Of a stretch of 64,000 nt of DNA, positions 4,012 to 64,000 are shown one piece after another. The stretch comes from an uncultured Bdellovibrionales bacterium (GTDB lineage Bacteria > Patescibacteriota > Minisyncoccia > Moranbacterales > UBA1568), in contig CAZIBB010000001.1 in the NCBI GenBank assembly GCA_964537075.1, forward strand, positions 19,072-83,071, given 5' to 3'. The notes under the pieces are model-generated. The model searched no databases. It was not told the origin of the DNA and saw nothing but the letters and a program-made list of their open reading frames with translations. Position 1 is the first letter of the stretch; the number at the start of each line of letters is the position of its first letter. The position numbers and the translations under genes are program-made.

Positions 4012-4051
4012 TTTTGGAGGCTAAACCTCCATGGAGGTTTAGCCTCCAAAA
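4012..4051. repeat. REP-like perfect palindrome TTTTGGAGGCTAAACCTCCATGGAGGTTTAGCCTCCAAAA flanking the transposase 3' end
   Basis: The 32-nt core GGAGGCTAAACCTCC-ATGG-AGGTTTAGCCTCC is its own reverse complement. It abuts the transposase stop codon at 4052-4054. Confidence 0.9.
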
Positions 4052-4711
4052 TTATTCCATCAACAAAGCTCTTTCAATCTGCTTTCTTTCTAAAATTCCA
4101 ATTAGGGAACTCTCTGAAAAATCTTTGTATTCCTCTTGACTGCGGAATTGTCCAAGTACAATATTTTTTTCACAATATTCGCGCTTTGTTTTTCCGATAT
4201 ATTCATTCCAACTTGAACGAGTAAGAATATCATCTTCATATCGATGCACACGAAAATTCAGATTTACATACGCACTCAAGTGCAATAAATATTCATTCGT
4301 TTCAATATGAATTGCCTTGAATGTTCCCTGGAACAGCGAGCCGCTTCGTGTATACTTTTTATTGAAATACATCGTGTATCCTGTACCAAATCGCTGCATA
4401 AACTTCTCCACCCCCTTATCTGAAACCTGCCTAAGAATAAAATGGAAATGATTCGGATTAATGCAGTATGCAATAACCTCAACCAACGGCTCTTCCTTTT
4501 CTTCATCCTTTATAACTACCTTTCCAAAACTTTTTTCATGAGATTTTTTTTCATAAATACTCCCTATAGGATTGAGTGTATTAAATTCAACCATGCTCTG
4601 CAGAAACCTCTCTGCATCAGTCACATCTTCTATAATCATTCTCTTTTCCACTCCACGATTATAAATATGATATACCTCCTCATTTGCAAATATCACTTTT
4701 CTCATAAGCAT
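4052..4711 (-). CDS. REP-associated tyrosine transposase (RAYT; Y1 HUH, IS200-like Y1_Tnp family)
   Basis: N-terminal YHIYNRG, HUH motif NPNHFHFIL, and a GSLFQGTFKAIHIE block comparable to the GxLWQxRYY region of Y1 transposases. The ORF track starts at 4756, inside the palindrome; the likely true start is M at 4711 or 4705 (MLMRKV...). Confidence 0.75.
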   Translation of the reverse strand: MLMRKVIFANEEVYHIYNRGVEKRMIIEDVTDAERFLQSMVEFNTLNPIGSIYEKKSHEKSFGKVVIKDEEKEEPLVEVIAYCINPNHFHFILRQVSDKGVEKFMQRFGTGYTMYFNKKYTRSGSLFQGTFKAIHIETNEYLLHLSAYVNLNFRVHRYEDDILTRSSWNEYIGKTKREYCEKNIVLGQFRSQEEYKDFSESSLIGILERKQIERALLME

Positions 4712-4719
4712 TGACGTTA

Positions 4720-4756
4720 TTTGGAGGCTAAACCTCCATGGAGGTTTAGCCTCCAC
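4720..4756. repeat. REP-like palindrome, second copy, flanking the transposase 5' end
   Basis: TTTGGAGGCTAAACCTCCATGGAGGTTTAGCCTCC, identical core to 4012..4051. Confidence 0.9.
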
Positions 4757-4764
4757 GATTTCAG

Positions 4765-5837: not shown

Positions 5838-5975
5838 ACGAGGAAAACACAAAAAATCAAACCACAAAAATCCAGACAAAGCACAGATATACAAAACACA
5901 AACTATACAAGGCTCTCGATTTTTTGTTTGGCATTTTGTGTTCTGAGCTTTGTGCTTTCAAAAAAATTTATCTTA
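5838..5975. repeat. CA-rich/TG-rich long inverted repeat, copy 1, with conserved core TTTGTTTGGCATTTTGTGTTCTGAGCTTTGTGCTTT
   Basis: ACAAAGCACAGATATACAAAACACAAA is followed by its approximate reverse complement. It lies 5' of the ABC ATPase gene; the core is shared with 6973..7135 and 62411..62563. Confidence 0.7.
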
Positions 5976-6972: not shown

Positions 6973-7135
6973 GATTCGTATTAAAACACAATAATCAAAG
7001 CACAAAGACCAAACAAATCACAAAACACAGGAGCCAAAAAGCATCTTACACAAAGAGATTTGTTTGTGTTTTGAATTTTGTGTTTTGTTTGACATTTTGT
7101 GTTCTGGGTTTTGTGTTTTTTAAAACAAGTTTGAT
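6973..7135. repeat. CA/TG inverted repeat, copy 2 (core TGTTTTGTTTGACATTTTGTGTTCTGGGTTTTGTGTTTTTT)
   Basis: Same architecture as copy 1, 5' of the HlyD gene. Confidence 0.7.
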
Positions 7136-15166: not shown

Positions 15167-15496
15167 ATAAATACCCTTACATATTATAAATTCATTATAC
15201 TCCGTCTCGCAAAAAACCAAAAGGGACACAGAGAATAACGATTGTTCCCCTCCGAAGGTGGGCAGGCGCTGTCTCAGCAGCGCGTCCGATGTTTTTTGGC
15301 TTTTCTTTTTATTTTTTTCTCTTCCTCTTTTTTCTTACCTGATCCCTCTCGAACACGCCCGACTCGCTTGTTGAACAGGAAGCTGTCCAGAGAGGAACTC
15401 TGTCACGCTCGACCGTTACCGACACACTCATCGCGCATGTTACCAATTGGAATCAAAGGAATAAAAAAGAGGATGAGAAAACACTTTGTACATTTC

Positions 15497-15690
15497 TCCA
15501 GTATGATCCTTCGGGGCTCCGCGCGAAAAGAATCGCCAGAAATTCGTGACACCCAAAAGGATAGGTGCTCCAACTGGAGGAAGTGAAACGCCTTTGGAGC
15601 ATCCATACGGCGTGTCACTGAATTTCTCGATTCTTGTCGCAGGAGAGAGTTTCTTTGGCATACTTTTCTTTGCGGACAAAGAAAAGTATG
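15497..15690. repeat. Structured about 190-nt element, copy A (candidate ncRNA or palindromic MITE)
   Basis: Matches the reverse complement of 27371..27585. It folds into a long interrupted helix (AAGAATCG/CGATTCTT, AGAAATTC/GAATTTCT, GTGACAC/GTGTCAC) plus a perfect 10-bp terminal hairpin CTTTTCTTTG-CGGA-CAAAGAAAAG. Confidence 0.6.
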
Positions 15691-15743
15691 GAGAAATATT
15701 TTAAATAATTAGTTTTGAAAAGCTCATTGCCCCAACAGAAAAT

Positions 15744-22848: not shown

Positions 22849-23036
22849 AATCTCTCTCAGATCTCACCGCAAAGATGAAAAAACAAAGACTTCTTCTGCT
22901 TGTCGCCTGAAATTCCATAATTTTGGCTGCAAATCCTGAAAAGCTCGTCGGGTTATCATGATAGCCCTCCTCACTTTTTCAGAATTTTCGCTCAAACTGA
23001 TGGAATTTCATGCCCGACATGAGATTTGAGAGAGAC
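22849..23036. mobile_element. MITE-like element, copy i (TIR flavour TCTCTCTCAGATCTCA / TGAGATTTGAGAGAGA)
   Basis: Terminal inverted repeats of 16 bp. The internal core CTGCTTGTCG..GGCTGCAAATCCTGAAAAGCTCGTCGGGTTATCATGATAGCCCTCCTCAC..TTTTCGCTC is shared with 41837..42018, 56352..56532 and 63832..64000. Confidence 0.8.
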
Positions 23037-25490: not shown

Positions 25491-25532
25491 TTTTTGGAGG
25501 TCGAACCTCCATGGAGGTTCGACCTCCAAAAA
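25491..25532. repeat. REP-like palindrome, third (orphan) copy, variant GGAGGTCGAACCTCC-ATGG-AGGTTCGACCTCC
   Basis: Same GGAGG...CCTCC-ATGG-GGAGG...CCTCC architecture as the copies flanking the transposase. The loop change CTAAA to TCGAA is mirrored symmetrically in the other half. Confidence 0.85.
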
Positions 25533-26774
25533 TTACTTATACAACGGAAACTGCTTGCATAACACTCGTATATCCTTACGCAACTTGTTACGTAACTTCG
25601 CATCGCCTTTATTCTTCCAGGCGGTATCGATGATACGGGCGATTTCCTTCACTTCACGCTCTTTCATCCCGCGTGTCGTGATCGCTGGAACGCCGATACG
25701 CACCCCACTCGGATCGAGCGGCCCGCGCGGATCATCCGGAATGACATTCTTATTGATGGTGATCCCCACTTCCTCCAATATATATTCCGCTTCCTTTCCA
25801 GTGAGGCCATAGCTCTTCACCGTATCGATCACGATCATATGATTCTCCGTTCCACCGAAGAGAATATACGCGCCGCCCTTATAGAGTTCCTTTTCGAGCA
25901 CCTTCGCATTTTTCAGTGTCTGTTTCGCGTACTTCCTGAACTCTGGTTTCAATGCCTCACCGAATGCCACCGCTTTGGCCGCCACGACGTGCATGTGTGG
26001 CCCTCCCTGCGTTCCCGGGAAAATAGCCTTGTCAATCGCCCTTGCAAATTCTTTCTTGCAGAGAATCATGCCTCCACGCGGTCCGCGCAGCGTCTTGTGC
26101 GTCGTCGCTGTCACGATATCGAAGTGCGGCACCGGACTCGGCAGCGCTTTCCCGGCGATGAGTCCCGCGATATGCGCCATGTCCATCATGGTCAATGCCT
26201 TCACCTTCTTTGCAATCGCGACGAACAACGCATAATCAATCTGCCGGGTATATGAAGAGAATCCCGCGAGCATGAGCTTCGGTTTTTCTTTTCTCGCAAG
26301 CGCTTCCAATTTTTTATAATCGATGCTGCCATCAGGTTCGGTTTTGTACCGAACGAAATTATACACCTTGGCCGGCAAGGTCACCGGATGACCATGCGTC
26401 AGATGTCCGCCATGAGAGAGATCCATGCCGAGCACCGTATCGCCCGGCTGAAGGAGTGCTGCATATACAGCGAGATTCGCCTGCGCCCCCGAATGCGCCT
26501 GCACATTCGCATGTTCCGCTCCGAACAATTTCTTCACGCGATCGAGCGCGAGCGTTTCCGCGACATCCGTCCATTCCTGTCCGCCATAGTACCTTTTCCC
26601 CGGATACCCTTCGGAATATTTGTTCGTGAAGACCGTCCCGAGCGTTTCCATCACCGCCTGCGAGACATAATTCTCCGACGCGATCATTTCCAATCCTTCT
26701 TCCTGCCGTTTTTCTTCGCCCATCACCGCGGCATACACCGCCTTGTCCGCCTTCTTCAGAATATCATGCTTCAT
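25533..26774 (-). CDS. glyA: Serine hydroxymethyltransferase
   Basis: PLP site [12 protein letters not shown] and the GHLTHGH block; 413 aa. Confidence 0.9.
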
Positions 26775-26842: not shown

Positions 26843-26894
26843 TTGACAAAACACGTTGAAAATAATATAATATGTGGTTCAGAATGGTTCTGAA
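26843..26894 (+). promoter_or_regulatory. Consensus sigma70-type promoter (TTGACA-17-TATAAT) with a perfect palindromic operator TTCAGAA-TGG-TTCTGAA at the predicted transcription start
   Basis: TTGACA 26843-26848, 17-nt spacer, TATAAT 26866-26871; palindrome 26878-26894. Confidence 0.6.
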
Positions 26895-26932
26895 TTTTGT
26901 ACATGAACAACCCAACTCACAAAGGAATAACC

Positions 26933-27055
26933 ATGAACTCAGAAATGTTCTCGTTCAGCGTTATGTGTTTTATCCTCCTACTGCTAGGTGGTCTCACGGC
27001 CTCGACAGTGATCAAAATGCAAAGGATCGGAGCGCCTCTACGATATTCTGTATGA
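26933..27055 (+). CDS. Small hydrophobic peptide (40 aa, 1 TM)
   Basis: MNSEMFSFSVMCFILLLLGGLTASTVIKMQRIGAPLRYSV. Shine-Dalgarno AAAGGA 8 nt upstream. Its TGA stop overlaps the next ATG (ATGA coupling). Confidence 0.45.
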   Translation: MNSEMFSFSVMCFILLLLGGLTASTVIKMQRIGAPLRYSV

Positions 27056-27273
27056 CTATTGGAGCGACTCCGTTCCTCTTGTTCATGCTCTTCGCACAGG
27101 CACTCCCGCCAATAGAAGCAACACCAGACGTCATTCGACCCATATTCAGAGTCGCCGCCGTCGGGTTCGGAGTCGTTGCGTTCACAGGTGGAATAGTAGT
27201 AGGGGCGGTTGTTTCGCACATTCTGTATGTCCATTCCCAAGCCAAGCTAGGAAGGACATACATTCCCGACTAG
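27052..27273 (+). CDS. Small hydrophobic protein (73 aa, 2 TM), translationally coupled to the upstream peptide
   Basis: MTIGATPFLLFMLFAQALPP...AAVGFGVVAFTGGIVVGAVVSHIL. The start overlaps the previous stop (gtATGA). Confidence 0.45.
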   Translation: MTIGATPFLLFMLFAQALPPIEATPDVIRPIFRVAAVGFGVVAFTGGIVVGAVVSHILYVHSQAKLGRTYIPD

Positions 27274-27345: not shown

Positions 27346-27370
27346 TTCAAAATTCTTTTTTCAAACAACT

Positions 27371-27585
27371 TCTTTCATACTTTTCTTTGTCCGCAAAGAA
27401 AAGTAGACAAAAGAAACTCTCTCCTGCGAACAAATCGATAAATTCTTCGACACCCTTATGGAAGCCTCCAAAGGCGCTTCACTTCCTCCAGTTGGAGCTT
27501 CTGTCCTTTTTGGGTGTCGAGAATTTCTAGCGATTCTTTTCGCGCGGAGCCCACGCAGGACCAAGTTTAGAGAAAATAATAAAGG
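27371..27585. repeat. Structured about 190-nt element, copy B (inverted orientation relative to copy A)
   Basis: Reverse complement aligns with 15497..15690. Helix positions carry compensatory changes: GTGACAC/GTGTCAC in A against TCGACAC/GTGTCGA in B. Confidence 0.6.
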
Positions 27586-27608: not shown

Positions 27609-28553
27609 CTATTTTTCTTTCAAAAACTCTTCGAGTGCTTCCGTGTAAGGACGGAAGGGAATGAATTTCGTATTGCGGAGTGTCGAACAATGTGGCCTTT
27701 TGGCAGGCCTTGGGAAAGCATCAGATGAAACAGGCTTCACGATGATATCTTTTCTAGCAATCCGAAAGAGCTCCTTCGCTGCCTCATACCAGGTCGCCGG
27801 GTTCTCATTGACCAAGTGATAGATACCATACGGTACGCCATGCTGTATCATCACCTTGGTCGCCAGGGCGAGATCCGGTGCATAGGTGAAACAGGAGCGT
27901 TCATCATCGACTGCAGTTATTTCTTTTTTCCCCTCAGATACTTCAAGCATCTTCTCAAAAAAACTTTTCTTCCCTACAAGCGAAGCCGCTGGTTTTCCAA
28001 AGAGTTTGGAGAGTCGAATGATATAATATTTTTCAGCGCATTCCGCCACAGCTTTTTCTCCCGCAAGCTTACTTTCTCCATATTTCGAAATCGGATTCGG
28101 TTCGGCATCCTCGACATATCCTTCTTCATTCGTTCCATCGAACACATAGTCCGACGAATAATGAAACAATGTCGCATTTATTTCCTTCGAGAGCTCCGCG
28201 AGGAATTTCGGCACTTCCGCATTCAGCATCATCGCTTTTGCATATTCTTCAATATTCTCTTCGCATTGATCGACAGCATTGTATGCCACGGCATTGATGA
28301 TAATGTCCGGTACATACTCTCGAACCTTTTTCTCCGCCAAAGTGAAATCCGTGATATCAACCCGGCACCTATTGTCTTCTTCTGATTTTGTAACCAAATT
28401 TTTAGGAACACCATTTTCAGACCCACATACAATAGGCGCTGGGTAAATATCCTCCCGATCCCACCCCATCGTTTCATATCCGGGATCTTCGGAGTACACC
28501 CGGACCAATTCCTGCCCGAGCATCCCCTTCGCTCCTAATATCAAAACTTTCAT
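27609..28553 (-). CDS. rfbD: dTDP-4-dehydrorhamnose reductase (RmlD)
   Basis: Rossmann MKVLILGAKGMLGQ, ...INAVAYNAVDQCEE, YxxxK; 314 aa. Confidence 0.8.
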   Translation of the reverse strand: MKVLILGAKGMLGQELVRVYSEDPGYETMGWDREDIYPAPIVCGSENGVPKNLVTKSEEDNRCRVDITDFTLAEKKVREYVPDIIINAVAYNAVDQCEENIEEYAKAMMLNAEVPKFLAELSKEINATLFHYSSDYVFDGTNEEGYVEDAEPNPISKYGESKLAGEKAVAECAEKYYIIRLSKLFGKPAASLVGKKSFFEKMLEVSEGKKEITAVDDERSCFTYAPDLALATKVMIQHGVPYGIYHLVNENPATWYEAAKELFRIARKDIIVKPVSSDAFPRPAKRPHCSTLRNTKFIPFRPYTEALEEFLKEK

Positions 28554-37904: not shown

Positions 37905-38111
37905 ATTCGTAACTTATAACAAACGACTGACAACCAACGACCAGAAAATACATAAACTAAAAACTGTCGCTGTATTGTTGTAAGTTGTATGTCGTATGTC
38001 GTCAGTTTTTATAGTTTCCCCACTTCTCACCACTTTTAGTGTGAGTAGCTCCATTTTACTCCACTTATAATACAAGCGTCAACATCTCGCCCCACCAAAG
38101 TTATCCACCGT

Positions 38112-38150
38112 CAGGAAAAACAAAAAACGGCTTATAATAACCGTTTTTAT
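38112..38150 (-). terminator. Rho-independent terminator (reads as hairpin plus T-run on the minus strand)
   Basis: AAAACGG-CTTATAATAA-CCGTTTT with an A-run before and a T-run after. Bidirectional in principle. Confidence 0.55.
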
Positions 38151-38302
38151 AAATATCCAGATTTTTCTCCTTCAAATAAATTCTTCAGCGTGACTTTACG
38201 ATCAAAAGCATGGTCTTTTTTGCTTTTAAAAAAAGTTTTGAGCGTAATGTCAGTTCAGTTTCGCTGGAAACCGAACGGCGATGGAAAATTTATTTGAAGG
38301 AT

Positions 38303-38535
38303 GATAAATGGTATTAACCCCAAAGCAAGCTCTTGACACTGAAATGAACAAAAGTTCATTTCATTTCCGCGTCCCGTCTCGCCGACGAGGTAGACAAGCC
38401 GCGGGGTATTTACCCTGTGTTACCCGCCTCGCGTCGATGAGTCCGTGAGTCGAGGCGGGCCGTCACTCTCCGTCAGCTGACGGACGAAAGTAAAAGTAAG
38501 AACTTTTAGCCTTACTCACTCACTCGGTAATAAAT
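38303..38535. ncRNA. Candidate structured RNA, family S2 copy 1 (orientation unresolved)
   Basis: Shares the 5' block ATAAATGGTATTAACCCC and GGTATTTACCC/GTTACC/CGTCACTC/ACTCACTC..GGTAATAA blocks with 43965..44126. Three hairpins carry compensatory substitutions between copies, and copy 1 has extra hairpin insertions (GCCTCG...CGAGGC, CCGTCAG-CTGACGG). TGGTATTAA resembles an extended -10. Confidence 0.5.
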
Positions 38536-38592
38536 TTTCCATCCTATATGGTAATCTCCCCCATGGGAAGCATCGCTCAAAATTCATGTCAT

Positions 38593-41836: not shown

Positions 41837-42018
41837 AGAGCCTGTTGAAAAATCCACCGCCTGTGATATAGAGATCTGCTTGTCGGCTATAATCTCAGAA
41901 TTTCGGCTGCAAATCCTGAAAAGCTCGTCGGGGTATCATGATAGCCCTCCTCACCTGTTCAGAATTTTCGCTCGAAATTCTGAAATTATAACTCGACATG
42001 ACTTTTTCAACAGGCTCT
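41837..42018. mobile_element. MITE-like element, copy ii (TIR flavour AGAGCCTGTTGAAAAA / TTTTTCAACAGGCTCT)
   Basis: 182 bp with perfect 16-17-bp terminal inverted repeats and the same core as copy i. Confidence 0.8.
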
Positions 42019-42722: not shown

Positions 42723-43958
42723 TCAAGGCTTTGCAGGCAAATCCGATTGAAAATCGATATACTTCCTCCCTATGAGTTTTTCCGGAAGATACGCCTGCCT
42801 CGCCTCCTCCTTGTTTTTGAAATCCGGAGTGTATTTGTAGTCCTTTCCGTAGCCCAATCCCTTCATCAATTTAGTCGGAGCATTCCGGAGATGCAGTGGC
42901 ACCGGCTCATTCGGAAATTTCGCAATATCTTCTTTCACCCTCGCATATCCCGCATAGAGCGCATTTGATTTCTTCGACTTCGCGAGATACACAACCGCCT
43001 GTGCAAGATTCATTTCGCATTCAGGCATACCGATATTCCTGCATGCCTCGAAAGCGGCAACCGCCTGCGGCAACGCGAATGAATTGGCGATACCGATATC
43101 TTCCGAAGCGAACCGTATGAGGCGCCTCGCGACATATAGAGGATCCTCCCCAGCCTCGAGCATCCGTCCGAGCCAATAGAGCGAAGCGTTTGCATCATCC
43201 CCGCGCATGGATTTATGCAACGCCGAAATGATATCATAATGCCATTCGCCATCCTTATCATAAAGCAGATGGGAACGCGCCATCACCTCCTCGATCAGTT
43301 TCACCGAGATCTTCGCCGCGCGCATCGCGCATGCCTCAAGCGCCGAGAGTGCCTGACGTGCATCGCCCCCCGATGCCTCCGCGAGAAACAAAAGTCCTCC
43401 CTTCTCCACTGAAATTTTTCCTGAGAGAAGCACTTCATCGGAAGCGAGCGCCCGCTCCAATAACTTCTCGATGACTGCGGCGGAAAGTTTTTCCAATACC
43501 AAAACGCGCGTCCGGGAGAGCAGTGCAGCATTCACGGAAAAACTCGGGTTCTCGGTCGTCGCCCCGATAAGGATGATTATCCCATTCTCGACATATGGAA
43601 GCAGAGCATCCTGCTGCGCCTTGTTCCATCGATGTATCTCATCAAGAAAAAGAATCGTTCGTCTCTTCGCTTCGTAGTTTTCTTTCGCGCGCGCTATCAC
43701 CATCTGCAAATCCTTCTTCCCGCTGCTGACCGCCGAAAGCTGAATGAATTCCGCGGAAAGTTCCGTCGTGAGGAGCCTTGCGAGCGTCGTCTTGCCACTT
43801 CCTGGTGGCCCCCAAAAGAGAAGCGACGGAACACTCCCTTGCCGGACCGCCTCGCGGAGAAACGACCCCTCTCCAAAAATTTTCTCCTGTCCAAAAAACT
43901 CCGAAATCGTTTTCGGTCGCAATCGTTCCGCAAGCGGGATGTTTTTTTGCTCACTCAT
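42723..43958 (-). CDS. rarA: Replication-associated recombination protein A (RarA/MgsA AAA+ ATPase)
   Basis: Walker [12 protein letters not shown], ...[16 protein letters not shown]..., MgsA C-terminal helical domains. Likely start [15 protein letters not shown] at 43958. Confidence 0.85.
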
Positions 43959-43964
43959 AATAAA

Positions 43965-44126
43965 TGGTATTAACCCCGGAGCAAGCTCCGGACATTGAAA
44001 CGAGCAAGAGCTCGTTTCAATTTCGCGGTCCCGCCATGGCGGGACGAGGTATTTACCCATATGTTACCGTCACTCGCTCGAAAGTGAAAGTAAGAACTTT
44101 CACTTTACTCACTCGCTAGGTAATAA
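43965..44126. ncRNA. Candidate structured RNA, family S2 copy 2
   Basis: See copy 1. Hairpins CCGGAG-CAAG-CTCCGG, TTGAAACGAGC-AAGA-GCTCGTTTCAA, AGTGAAAG-TAAGAA-CTTTCACT. It fills the tsaC-rarA spacer, ending 7 nt before the rarA ATG. Confidence 0.5.
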
Positions 44127-56351: not shown

Positions 56352-56532
56352 AGAGCCTGTTGAAAAATCCACCGCCTGTCAAAAAAGATATGCTTGTCGG
56401 CTTACATTCCAGAATTTCGGCTGCAAACCCCTCAAAGCTCGTCGGAATATCCCGATATTCCTCCTCACTTTTCACGGTTTTCGCTCGAAATTCTGGAATG
56501 TAACGCTCGACATGGCTTTTTCAACAGGCTCT
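56352..56532. mobile_element. MITE-like element, copy iii (AGAGCCTGTTGAAAAA flavour)
   Basis: 181 bp with perfect terminal inverted repeats. Its end abuts the pilO stop codon. Confidence 0.8.
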
Positions 56533-62410: not shown

Positions 62411-62563
62411 ATTTCTTCAAAAAACACAGTCTCCAAAGCACAGAAATCAAACAAAACACAGTATTTAAAAACACAAAACTCAAACCAAGAAAGAGAGAGT
62501 TTGTGCTTTTATTATTCTGCATTGTGTTTTGTTTGGCATTTTGTGTTTTCTATTTTGTGCTTT
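62411..62563. repeat. CA/TG inverted repeat, copy 3 (core TGTGTTTTGTTTGGCATTTTGTGTTTTCTATTTTGTGCTTTTT)
   Basis: Between the pilC stop and the pilin gene start; same conserved core as copies 1 and 2. Confidence 0.7.
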
Positions 62564-63784
62564 TTACTTGATATTCTCCAATACGGAGTACATCGGAGTG
62601 AGCATCGCCACTGCGAAAAATCCCACGCCGCTTCCGATGAACAGCATGAGAATCGGTTCCAGGATGGAAGACATGTTCTTCGTGATCTGATCCACCTCTC
62701 CCTCATAAAAATCCGCCAGCCGGGCAAGGACGGTCTCGGTTTTCCCTGTCTCTTCTCCTACTTCAATGATCTGTGGTACGAGAATCGGGAAAATTTTCGG
62801 ATAGCGCCGGATAACCACGCTCATTTCCACACCTTTCTGAATCTCATTGAGCGCCTCGGTCAACGCGTCACGGTAGTATACGTTCGAGAGCGTTTTCATC
62901 ACGATAGAAAGACCGTCCACCACCGATACGCCGGATCGGAGCAAAGAACTGTAAATGCGGGCGAAACGCGCGCAGTTCACCTTGATGATGATATTTCCAA
63001 TGATTGGCAGGGAGAGAAAAAGCCAATCGAACCAGCGCTTGCCGAACGGCTGGCTATAAAGAAATTTGATGCCTACGACGAGTCCGATACACAGGCCGAT
63101 GACGATGAAATAGTGTGCGATCAAAAAATCGGAGATTCCCATGATGAACAGGGTTGATTTCGGAAGCGCCACATCCATATCTTTGAACACGCCGGTAATC
63201 TTCGGCAAAATATAGGTAAGCATCAGAACGGCGATACCGATCATCGCTATAAAAATCACCGCCGGATATATCAGGGCGCCACGAACCTTGGATGTCAAAT
63301 CATTTTCCTTCTCCAGCTGGATAGCGAGGATTTCAAGCACTTCCTCGAGATTGCCGCTCACCTCACCCACATTGATCATGTTGACGAAGAGCTCGTTAAA
63401 CACCGTCGGAAACTTCGCCAACCCCTCCGAGAGGGTGAGACCCGCCTGCAGATCATCATGTACCGACACGAGAATCTTCCGGAAGGATTTATTATTCGTC
63501 TGTTCGCTCAAGTTCGATACCGCGCGGGAAATAGTGAGTCCCGAAGAGACCATCACCGCGAGGTTTCTCGTGAAAATCATTTTTTCCTTCAACGGGATGG
63601 AGACGAAGCGATCGAAAAATTTCACGCTTGCCTTTTTTTCATCCGGCTGAAGCGATTTCAACGAAGTGACCAGCCACCCTTCCGCCCGCAGATTTTTCGC
63701 CACGTCCTGGTCGCTTTTGGCCTCGATCTCACCACCGCGCGTCTCGCCGGTCGCAATATTTCTCGCCGTATAGATAAACTTCAT
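62564..63784 (-). CDS. pilC: Type IV pilus inner-membrane platform protein PilC (GspF family)
   Basis: Two T2SSF repeats (...LSEGLAKFPTVFNELFVNMINVGEVSGNL...); 406 aa. Confidence 0.9.
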   Translation of the reverse strand: MKFIYTARNIATGETRGGEIEAKSDQDVAKNLRAEGWLVTSLKSLQPDEKKASVKFFDRFVSIPLKEKMIFTRNLAVMVSSGLTISRAVSNLSEQTNNKSFRKILVSVHDDLQAGLTLSEGLAKFPTVFNELFVNMINVGEVSGNLEEVLEILAIQLEKENDLTSKVRGALIYPAVIFIAMIGIAVLMLTYILPKITGVFKDMDVALPKSTLFIMGISDFLIAHYFIVIGLCIGLVVGIKFLYSQPFGKRWFDWLFLSLPIIGNIIIKVNCARFARIYSSLLRSGVSVVDGLSIVMKTLSNVYYRDALTEALNEIQKGVEMSVVIRRYPKIFPILVPQIIEVGEETGKTETVLARLADFYEGEVDQITKNMSSILEPILMLFIGSGVGFFAVAMLTPMYSVLENIK

Positions 63785-63831: not shown

Positions 63832-64000
63832 TCTCTCTCAAATCTCACCGCATGAGATAAAAAAACAAAGATTTCTCCTGCTTGTCGGCTAAAATTTCAT
63901 CATTTCGGCTGCAAATCTCGAAAATCTCGTCGGAATATCCAGATATTCCTCCCTGCCCGAAATGCTACGCATGCCGTTGCAGGCGGGCTCACTTTTCAAA
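63832..64000. mobile_element. MITE-like element, copy iv (TCTCTCTCAAATCTCA flavour), truncated by the window end
   Basis: Begins TCTCTCTCAAATCTCACCGCATGAGAT...CTGCTTGTCGGCT...GGCTGCAAATCTCGAAAATCTCGTCGG. Same core as copies i to iii. Confidence 0.7.

Follow-up and report, generated by a model that had tools for sequence, protein, structure and literature searches.

The 64-kb window analyzed here (the whole stretch taken from contig CAZIBB010000001.1) belongs to a Candidatus Moranbacteria (Patescibacteria) genome, as do the related contigs compared with it, judging from homologues of LepA and 2-oxoacid oxidoreductase. The window is compact, with nearly all genes on the minus strand and gaps mostly below 150 nt. 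Two spacers that rank among its largest (577 and 335 nt) each hold one copy of a structured repeat, copy A on the plus strand and copy B on the minus strand. Copy A occupies the spacer bounded by the lepA stop (15744) and the trxA start (15166) and is antisense to the two genes. Copy B begins 36 nt past the stop of a co-oriented RmlD-family gene and converges on an open reading frame (ORF) for a hydrophobic protein of 133 aa; a first, sequence-only reading had placed it directly behind a hydrophobic-peptide operon, which is not what lies there. Both copies reach slightly beyond the limits first noted (Table 1).

Independent comparisons agree that A and B form an inverted pair. A repeat search of the window found three collinear inverted arms (93%, 78%, and 94% identical), a structure-aware alignment gives 87% core identity (15493-15700 against 27366-27573), and MAFFT and BLAST give 84–87% over about 210 nt, the lowest value coming from BLAST of copy B against an independently assembled copy A (84%, 221 nt, E = 3e-59), close to the approximately 190-nt pair at approximately 85% identity that had been described. 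In a separate ENA assembly of the same genome (ERZ27247837), copy A is intact and two contigs terminate within copy B, which indicates that the repeat is real and breaks assemblies rather than being an assembly artefact. The element does not encode a protein, as had been proposed: reading frames shift from copy to copy, every frame contains stops, and no frame is shared. Nor does it belong to a described RNA family, since neither copy matches Rfam at gathering threshold and neither spacer does at E ≤ 10. The same absence of an Rfam match speaks against 6S RNA and SRP RNA, which are normally encoded by single-copy genes, unlike this element.

Each copy is built from the same series of parts. 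The unit comprises a small 5′ hairpin, an interrupted helix of approximately 130 nt, a pyrimidine tract (Y1), an AT-rich hairpin (Y2, loop, and R2), and a purine tail with a U-rich stretch. In the long helix, the internal loop is of A-rich/GGA type, and the apical loop, which is conserved and rich in purines, bears a 2-bp mini-hairpin. Y1 mirrors the 5′ arm of the AT-rich hairpin and runs parallel to its purine arm. The perfect 10-bp terminal hairpin of the earlier description is the core of this structure, which reaches 14 bp in A (CAUAC.../...GUAUG) and 12 bp in B, and in the fold of copy A the purine tail lengthens it by a further 7 bp. A purine tail followed by a U-rich tract (UUUGUUUG-like) is present in about 8/12 copies, on one strand only; the U-tract that follows this extended AU-rich stem (Y1 with the purine tail) is separate from the hairpin core. 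Three GGA motifs per copy lie in unpaired purine-rich loops (the AAAAGGAY internal loop, the GGAGGAAG apical loop, and CAGGAGAG). The small 5′ hairpins, read from the sequence by eye and outside the consensus structure, come in at least two unrelated versions, GGUCCUGCGUGG-type and CUUUGUAUCAGAG-type. The core of copy B is 98% identical to that of the copy on related contig L021, yet its 5′ hairpin is the L019 version while L021 has the other; 5′ hairpin versions are thus shuffled relative to the core, and the element is modular.

The helices are maintained through compensatory substitutions, well beyond controls. Copy A folds at −83.3 kcal/mol (z = −7.5 against dinucleotide shuffles, with 0/200 shuffles as good), and this minimum-free-energy fold is the long interrupted helix around a conserved interior that had been read from the letters. 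In a model-based alignment of 12 copies, 98.1% of helix cells are standard pairs, and 10 pairs have changed on both sides, compared with 4.9 ± 1.1 in shuffles (0/500 reach 10) and 0–2 in slid controls. The double change first seen between the two copies (GUGACAC/GUGUCAC in A, UCGACAC/GUGUCGA in B) holds, and the 2-bp apical mini-stem covaries around its triloop (GU-GAA-AC, GU-GAA-GC, GC-GAA-GC, GC-AAG-GC, and AC-AAA-GU). Paired columns are more conserved than unpaired ones (93% vs. 77%). Sequence variation falls mostly in the middle and apical helices, and the basal helices, linker, and hairpin are almost fixed.

Copies A and B are two of a dispersed family. Scanning JGI metagenome contigs with the 24-nt hairpin returned 12 loci, of which seven contain a full element at 77–97% identity; L011 has, besides its full copy, a truncated second copy at the contig end, the two forming a divergent pair. 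A covariance model (R1) built from nine copies then found three new ones on contigs around the oxidoreductase homologues (one in L043 and two in L046), independently of the hairpin string. In total there are 12 full copies at 10 spacers plus the truncated one, 10 of the full copies being outside the window, with E-values down to 1e-62. Every copy is intergenic, flanking genes vary from locus to locus, and both orientations relative to neighbours occur. That the pair is instead a chance or one-off inverted duplication, or a broken small coding gene, with neither family nor constraint, has next to no probability: only two copies are visible in the window, but the 10 other full copies, the compensatory helices, those E-values, and the lack of a conserved frame refute it.

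Comparison of spacers points to mobility-like behaviour. Copy B, after rmlD, is 98% identical to the L021 copy, which lies in an unrelated spacer after the oxidoreductase beta subunit gene. The oxidoreductase/DUF59 spacer carries an element in both L021 and L046, but in opposite orientations and with 80% identity, which points to independent acquisition. In the gyrB-xseA spacer an element lies directly past the gyrB stop in L043 and L046 (95% identical and presumably for that reason orthologous), and L039 and L041 have a GC-rich palindromic (REP-like) repeat in its place. The lepA-trxA spacer of the closest relative (93% LepA identity) is without an element. Filled and empty orthologous spacers, the orientation switch, and the 98%-identical copy at an unrelated locus together argue for a mobile-like dispersed repeat. 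We consider it probable that A and B belong to a family of non-autonomous, mobile-like structured repeats of approximately 210–240 nt in Moranbacteria intergenic spacers, which would have spread as a folded single strand, by copy-and-paste or recombination. The sequence-only reading, a candidate noncoding RNA or hairpin-forming miniature inverted-repeat transposable element (MITE) with helix-preserving substitutions, fits well with a dispersed, multicopy, non-coding element whose compensatory changes exceed shuffled and slid controls and which is polymorphic in presence and orientation. Neither of the two outcomes that it had named as refuting was seen: the helices covary, and target-site duplications were not found.

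Several observations pull against this interpretation. No R1 match other than A and B occurs in the window, leaving only two copies in 64 kb. At 85–93% protein identity relatives' spacers no longer align, so that empty sites do not define insertion boundaries. When 60 × 60 combinations of boundaries were searched for target-site duplications, all that turned up were low-complexity, A/T-rich repeats whose offsets did not agree, clear terminal inverted repeats were not found, and neither a related autonomous insertion sequence with the same ends nor a linked transposase was present in the window or in approximately 250 kb of related contigs. Unlike REP/REPIN-RAYT elements, the copies do not flank the RAYT-like gene of the window, and the GGAGGCUAAACCUCC doublets of that gene are unrelated to them. 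Hairpin invariance is partly forced, since 9/12 copies were ascertained by the exact hairpin 24-mer. A scan for sigma-70 promoters around both copies found nothing conserved. Both strands fold almost equally well (z = −7.5 vs. −6.6), and wobble pairs, counted with both strands folded independently, leave the strand unsettled (15 vs. 21 cells, or 7 vs. 3 variable columns).

The placement of copies relative to genes raises the possibility of a cis-acting 3′ untranslated region or intergenic punctuation element (a terminator, mRNA stabiliser, or insulator) copied by recombination rather than transposition. Five copies (B, L021, L018, and, after gyrB, L043 and L046) begin 3–36 nt past a co-oriented stop codon. 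In six of the first eight informative copies (A, B, L021, L018, L011, and L012), a convergent gene ends toward the hairpin (3′) side, and an extended stem is followed by a U-rich tract. But copies A and L019 are antisense to their flanking genes and L015 and L010 lie at divergent gene starts; the U-tract stands apart from the AT-rich hairpin core, and a standard terminator scan around both window copies called none; and the conserved 130-nt helix and loop far exceed what a terminator needs. We therefore regard punctuation as quite improbable.

Searches beyond the family, and tests of other origins for the pair, were largely negative. An exact 20-mer of the apical loop had three chance matches among 185,579 species-representative genomes, all within coding regions. 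Three exact patterns sought in IMG/VR and a BLAST search against phage genomes gave no match. Nor did a protein-level search with the element translated in all six frames, although the long artificial query probably cost score. Literature searches by sequence string and by Patescibacteria MITE returned nothing relevant, and no tRNA was found next to L010. An 11.7-kb invertible segment between A and B is ruled out by syntenic gene order in L008, a relative with 81% LepA identity. A template/variable repeat pair of a diversity-generating retroelement is likewise ruled out, as differences between A and B are not adenine-specific. L014, L017, and L020 share the bare hairpin only and are probably unrelated.

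One part of the element recurs far outside Moranbacteria. When copy A was compared with PLSDB plasmids and chromids by BLAST, only its 3′ module (UUUCUUUU, linker, CUUUUCUUUG, loop, CAAAGAAAAG) matched, at about 88% over about 41 nt and in many places: at least 40 per replicon in Paraburkholderia and 2–22 per Ralstonia replicon, with further matches in Burkholderia, Pseudoalteromonas, and Pasteurella. A pattern scan also placed the module in six IMG/VR contigs. Two of these occurrences stand just 3′ of a same-strand Rfam match to TwoAYGGAY, at a distance of 27 nt in Pseudoalteromonas (L023, 51.3 bits) and of 72 nt in an IMG/VR contig (L038, 43.7 bits). In Burkholderia, the Rfam family Bp1_Cand684_SIPHT (RF02421), scoring 93–119 bits there, starts within the 3′ arm of the shared hairpin. 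The corresponding candidate small RNA (sRNA), Bp1_684, located between pdhB and lpdA, was positive by reverse-transcription PCR (RT-PCR) in B. pseudomallei (PMC3521395). Elements of Ralstonia and Pasteurella, often arranged as divergent doublets, have their parts in the order long helix, AAAAA-GGA internal loop, AGCGAAGC apical mini-hairpin, linker, and Y1-Y2-R2.

Other occurrences of the module came with features of their own. In Paraburkholderia caribensis (L022, NZ_CP013104.1), two inverted units of approximately 430 nt make up nested palindromes of approximately 870 nt, found at at least 40 places per 2-Mb replicon and annotated in none of the records. Y1 and an identical hairpin (49–55 bits with R1) also occur on L013 and L016, two contigs from outside the candidate phyla radiation (CPR). 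There they precede, by about 35 nt, a gene whose translated N terminus reads as that of hemE (uroporphyrinogen decarboxylase), and the module might serve as a single-copy regulator in cis. The viral contig L038 (IMGVR_UViG_3300035491_000319), which has both a TwoAYGGAY match and the Y-Y-R module, also contains two type II hammerhead ribozymes (66–70 bits).

The three strands of the module vary together. In all taxa Y1 equals R2 read in the same 5′-to-3′ direction with A changed to U and G to C, and Y2 is the Watson-Crick complement. Three states were seen (Y1/Y2/R2): UUUCUUUU / UUUUCUUU / AAAGAAAA in most taxa, UUUCUUU / UUUCUUU / AAAGAAA in R. solanacearum, and UUUUCUUU / UUUCUUUU / AAAAGAAA in a second Pasteurella copy. 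A parallel match of Y1 to R2 is what a parallel pyrimidine third strand predicts (U.A-U triples with one C+.G-C), while a direct repeat or a Watson-Crick alternative predicts another register. Stem positions flanking the tract covary freely (CCUAC/GUAGG, GUUAC/GUAAC, GUGAC/GUCAC, and CAUAC/GUAUG) while the tract stays invariant even in 65%-GC genomes, which points to a constraint beyond pairing. The three-way covariation suggests that Y1 may lie on Y2/R2 as a pyrimidine-motif triple helix, occupying the major groove of the stem.

Loop sequences add a further predicted contact. In most proteobacterial copies, 3–7 nt just 5′ of Y1 complement the hairpin loop (GCCGC/GCGGC, UGCC/GGCA, UCGCC/GGCGA, GUGCG/CGCAC, and CCUGC/GCAGG), a modest signal given that pairing of at least 4 bp occurs in 60% of own vs. 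25% of cross pairings. Such pairing would form an H-type pseudoknot with Y1 as loop 1, and the triple helix of these relatives may sit within it. In Moranbacteria copies the loop GCGGA has its complement elsewhere, in UCCGC where the long helix begins, rather than directly before Y1. An end structure with the triple helix would be very stable and might protect a transcript 3′ end, aid termination, or be recognized as single-stranded DNA.

The sense strand is most likely that of copy A. Both Rfam families touching the module (TwoAYGGAY and Bp1_684) lie on this strand, and only here are there a pyrimidine third strand, a purine tail able to pair with Y1, and a U-rich tract. Wobble pairs on the forward-derived structure number 14 G.U vs. 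1 A.C; the derivation of that structure biases the count. GC-GNA-GC, the apical motif, is also known to form an exceptionally stable mini-hairpin in DNA, and the window encodes a Y1/HUH (RAYT-like) enzyme, so that a single-stranded-DNA role is conceivable.

If the element acts as RNA, the copies might be genuine paralogous genes for trans-acting sRNAs, for example GGA-displaying sponges of a Csr/Rsm-type protein in which the triple-helix hairpin would stabilise or terminate the transcript. The three GGA motifs in conserved unpaired loops fit this proposal, as do structure-preserving covariation, the terminator-like extended hairpin and U-rich tail on one strand only, and a module adjoining TwoAYGGAY, which belongs to Rfam clan CL00106, presumably the Csr/Rsm sRNA clan. 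The Burkholderia relative is RT-PCR positive (PMC3521395), and Csr/Rsm sponging has been proposed for TwoAYGGAY elements in a preprint (bioRxiv 10.64898/2026.09.22.753630). Yet no promoter is conserved at a fixed distance, some copies lie 3–36 nt past a co-oriented stop and others run antisense to neighbouring genes, near relatives lack the element in the orthologous spacers, copies at unrelated loci are 98% identical, and no CsrA domain occurs among the Pfam-scanned ORFs of the window. Dedicated sRNA genes are thus unlikely.

The closest described counterparts of the mobile-like repeat are extended TwoAYGGAY elements. According to the preprint (bioRxiv 10.64898/2026.09.22.753630), these number a median of 11–23 and up to 202 copies per Pseudomonas genome, show an excess of divergent doublets, are followed at a fixed 3′ distance by REP arrays, carry additional hairpins as well as a pseudoknot on the 3′ side, and are regarded as mobile-element-like and possible Csr/Rsm sponges, with the extension concentrated in Pseudomonadota. 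Measured against those descriptions, the Moranbacteria element is similarly multicopy and intergenic, with a divergent pair, 3′ REP-like doublets, and a terminal 3′ hairpin, and shares a long basal stem, purine/GGA loops, and a putative pseudoknot; the Y1-Y2-R2 module may correspond to the preprint's 3′ hairpin and pseudoknot. In contrast to TwoAYGGAY itself (RF01731), it has a single long helix rather than two AYGGAY-loop hairpins on a basal stem, an apical loop consisting of GGAGGAAG and the mini-hairpin, GGA also in the AAAAGGAY internal loop, a hairpin loop that complements the 5′ start of the long helix, and a host within the CPR. RF01731 (gathering threshold 43 bits) has no match in the window, nor at E ≤ 10 on the spacers, while L023 and L038 match as controls at the scores given above. 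The element is best filed as a structured, non-coding, mobile-like Moranbacteria repeat within the class typified by extended TwoAYGGAY elements; it is neither a member of RF01731 itself nor a REP/RAYT element, and it fits a classical MITE poorly.

Likenesses to other systems are partial. Ralstonia, Pasteurella, and Paraburkholderia elements, together with RF02421, are multicopy and share the part order and the GC-GNA-GC apical mini-hairpin AGCGAAGC, but cannot be aligned with the Moranbacteria element outside the approximately 45-nt module, and in Proteobacteria further GC-rich hairpins come after the module in place of a purine tail; RF02421 (44-bit threshold) has no match in the window. REP/REPIN-RAYT elements and IS200/IS605-derived PATEs are likewise hairpin-forming, non-coding, intergenic, and multicopy, with compensatory changes and without target-site duplications, which were not found here either, but the Moranbacteria element is asymmetric and 5–10 times longer than REP. 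Correia (CREE), ERIC/IRU, BOX, and RUP are modular intergenic repeats of 100–250 nt whose transcripts fold into long imperfect hairpins and which can provide terminators or sites for processing. The Moranbacteria element differs from them in that terminal inverted repeats with target-site duplications were not found, in having no known sequence similarity to them, and in its cross-phylum 3′ module. Triple-helix RNA structures are known from the ENE with its A-rich tract (PAN, MALAT1) and from H-type pseudoknots with major-groove U.A-U triples (telomerase RNA, SAM-II). As there, a U-rich strand with a single C would run parallel to an A-rich strand with a single G, near the 3′ end, and the A-rich strand pairs in Watson-Crick fashion with a second U-rich strand; unlike there, all three strands of the module are contiguous (Y1, 5-nt linker, Y2, loop, R2), bacterial, and part of a repeat, and could equally form in single-stranded DNA.

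Could these elements share one origin? A broader and rather doubtful proposal, though a possible one, is that the Moranbacteria repeat, the proteobacterial TwoAYGGAY-type elements, and the Ralstonia/Pasteurella/Paraburkholderia long-helix elements form one cross-phylum superfamily of mobile structured elements. Their universally conserved 3′ module would be an intramolecular triple helix (U.A-U with one C+.G-C, in an H-type pseudoknot) serving as an ENE-like 3′-end protector or as a structure for single-stranded-DNA mobilisation, and its near-identity would come from horizontal spread or from extreme constraint by a conserved host factor. R1 scores proteobacterial elements no higher at full length than for the module alone, so only the module is demonstrably homologous and homology of the long helix is not established. 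The case for the triple helix derives from three sequence states, and hence few independent events.

Further repeats and mobile-element genes occur in the window and in the related contigs (Table 1). GC-rich REP-like doublets lie 17–21 nt 3′ of three element copies; they belong to a second repeat family of GC-rich palindromic doublets, GCGGNNNNNCCGC, for example CAGCGGACGCACCGC...GCGGAACGACCGC, which also fills the gyrB-xseA spacer of the lineage without the element. The RAYT-like gene encodes a 234-aa ORF with a Pfam Y1_Tnp (IS200-like) match of 30.5 bits, above cut-off, an HUH-like motif (NHFHF), and a weak match to the NCBIfam REP-associated tyrosine transposase. The same perfect 41-nt palindrome, TTTGGAGGCTAAACCTCCATGGAGGTTTAGCCTCCAAAA, flanks it on both sides, and a third copy, diverged but showing compensatory changes, precedes an SHMT (glyA-like) gene; gene and palindromes look like a RAYT/REPIN system in a CPR genome. 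A sequence of 100–113 nt, present four times at 64–87% identity, lies just upstream of minus-strand genes (a glycosyltransferase, an M17 aminopeptidase, a 106-aa ORF, and type II secretion system (T2SS) protein F), with one copy forming part of a 50-nt inverted repeat; it may act as a common promoter or leader, or represent a further repeat family. Two repeats of 71 nt (82% identity) combine a TTGACA-like box with a hairpin (GAAATGAAC...GTTCATTTC), one of them in the largest intergenic gap of the window, and short T/G-rich repeats (TTTGTGTTTTGTTTGRCATTTTGTGTT) occur in three spacers. Several relatives have a small 23S_rRNA_IVP/bAvd-like gene between the alpha and beta genes of 2-oxoacid:ferredoxin oxidoreductase (L039–L045 and L048). 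L046 and L047 instead have a reverse-transcriptase gene immediately upstream, and L008 has a bAvd and reverse-transcriptase pair; these genes are probably parts of diversity-generating retroelements.

Table 1. Positions of the repeat copies, their parts, and other features. Positions without a locus number refer to the window.
Feature	Position	Strand	Remarks
Copy A, whole	about 15493-15712	+	
Copy A, 5′ pyrimidine tract (UUUCUCC) and small 5′ hairpin (CC-UUCG-GG)	15493..15516	+	similarity among copies begins about 24-30 nt 5′ of CUCCGC
Copy A, 129-nt long interrupted helix (CUCC...GGAG)	15517..15645	+	minimum-free-energy fold and 12-copy consensus; A-rich 5′ internal loop AAAAGGAU; conserved apical loop CUGGAGGAAG-GUGAAAC-GCC
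Copy A, linker AGAG, Y1 UUUCUUU, GG	15646..15658	+	Y1 at 15650-15656; nearly invariant in 12 copies
Copy A, 14-bp AT-rich hairpin CAUAC-UUUUCUUUG / CGGA / CAAAGAAAAG-UAUG	15659..15690	+	Y2, loop, R2
Copy A, purine tail (GAGAAAU), then U-rich AUUUUAAAU	15691..15712	+	tail able to pair with Y1
Copy B, whole	about 27354-27573	-	
Copy B, 5′ pyrimidine tract and small 5′ hairpin (GUCC-UGCGU-GGGC)	27549..27573	-	
Copy B, long interrupted helix, about 129 nt	27421..27548	-	helix starts at 27549, overlapping the 5′ part by one base
Copy B, linker, Y1 UUUCUUUU, hairpin, purine tail AAAGAAG	27366..27420	-	Y1 at 27416-27409
Copy B, hairpin	Y2 27402-27394, R2 27389-27380	-	loop CGGA
Inverted arms, first	15514-15558/27508-27552		93%
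Inverted arms, second	15552-15632/27433-27513		78%
Inverted arms, third	15637-15690/27376-27429		94%
RmlD-family gene	27609-28553	-	
Hydrophobic 133-aa ORF	26872-27273	+	
Copies found by R1	L043 7468-7679; L046 4151-4362; L046 12777-12985		
RAYT-like gene	4052-4756	-	
41-nt palindrome, flanking copies	4013-4053; 4720-4760		
41-nt palindrome, diverged third copy	25493-25533		
GC-rich palindromic doublets	L011 935-967 and 1209-1241; L012 777-789; L046 12726-12758; L039 8050-8150; L006 2460-2560; about 15235-15290		window copy degenerate
100-113-nt sequence	22873-23007; 41853-41987; 56367-56501; 63855-63952		50-nt inverted repeat at 56402-56503
71-nt repeats	38301-38371; 43957-44027		largest intergenic gap at 37905-38592
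T/G-rich repeats	5917-5961; 7064-7122; 62508-62566		
bAvd-like gene	L039 11714-12094		example
Reverse-transcriptase gene	L046 9023-9955		
bAvd and reverse-transcriptase pair	L008 19348-20771		
Nested palindromes, P. caribensis	L022 836-1701		
Module upstream of hemE-like gene	L013 2246-2381; L016 7720-7861		
Type II hammerhead ribozymes	L038 1351-1423; L038 2238-2309		

A structured repeat of 210 nt that turns over between the spacers of a compact CPR genome is unexpected baggage and likely functional. It extends to the CPR a class of multicopy structured elements so far known mainly from Pseudomonadota. Its most interesting part is the cross-phylum Y-Y-R module with the triple-helix signature: this 45-nt module is the one piece common to these elements, and offers a handle on what TwoAYGGAY-type elements are and how they spread.

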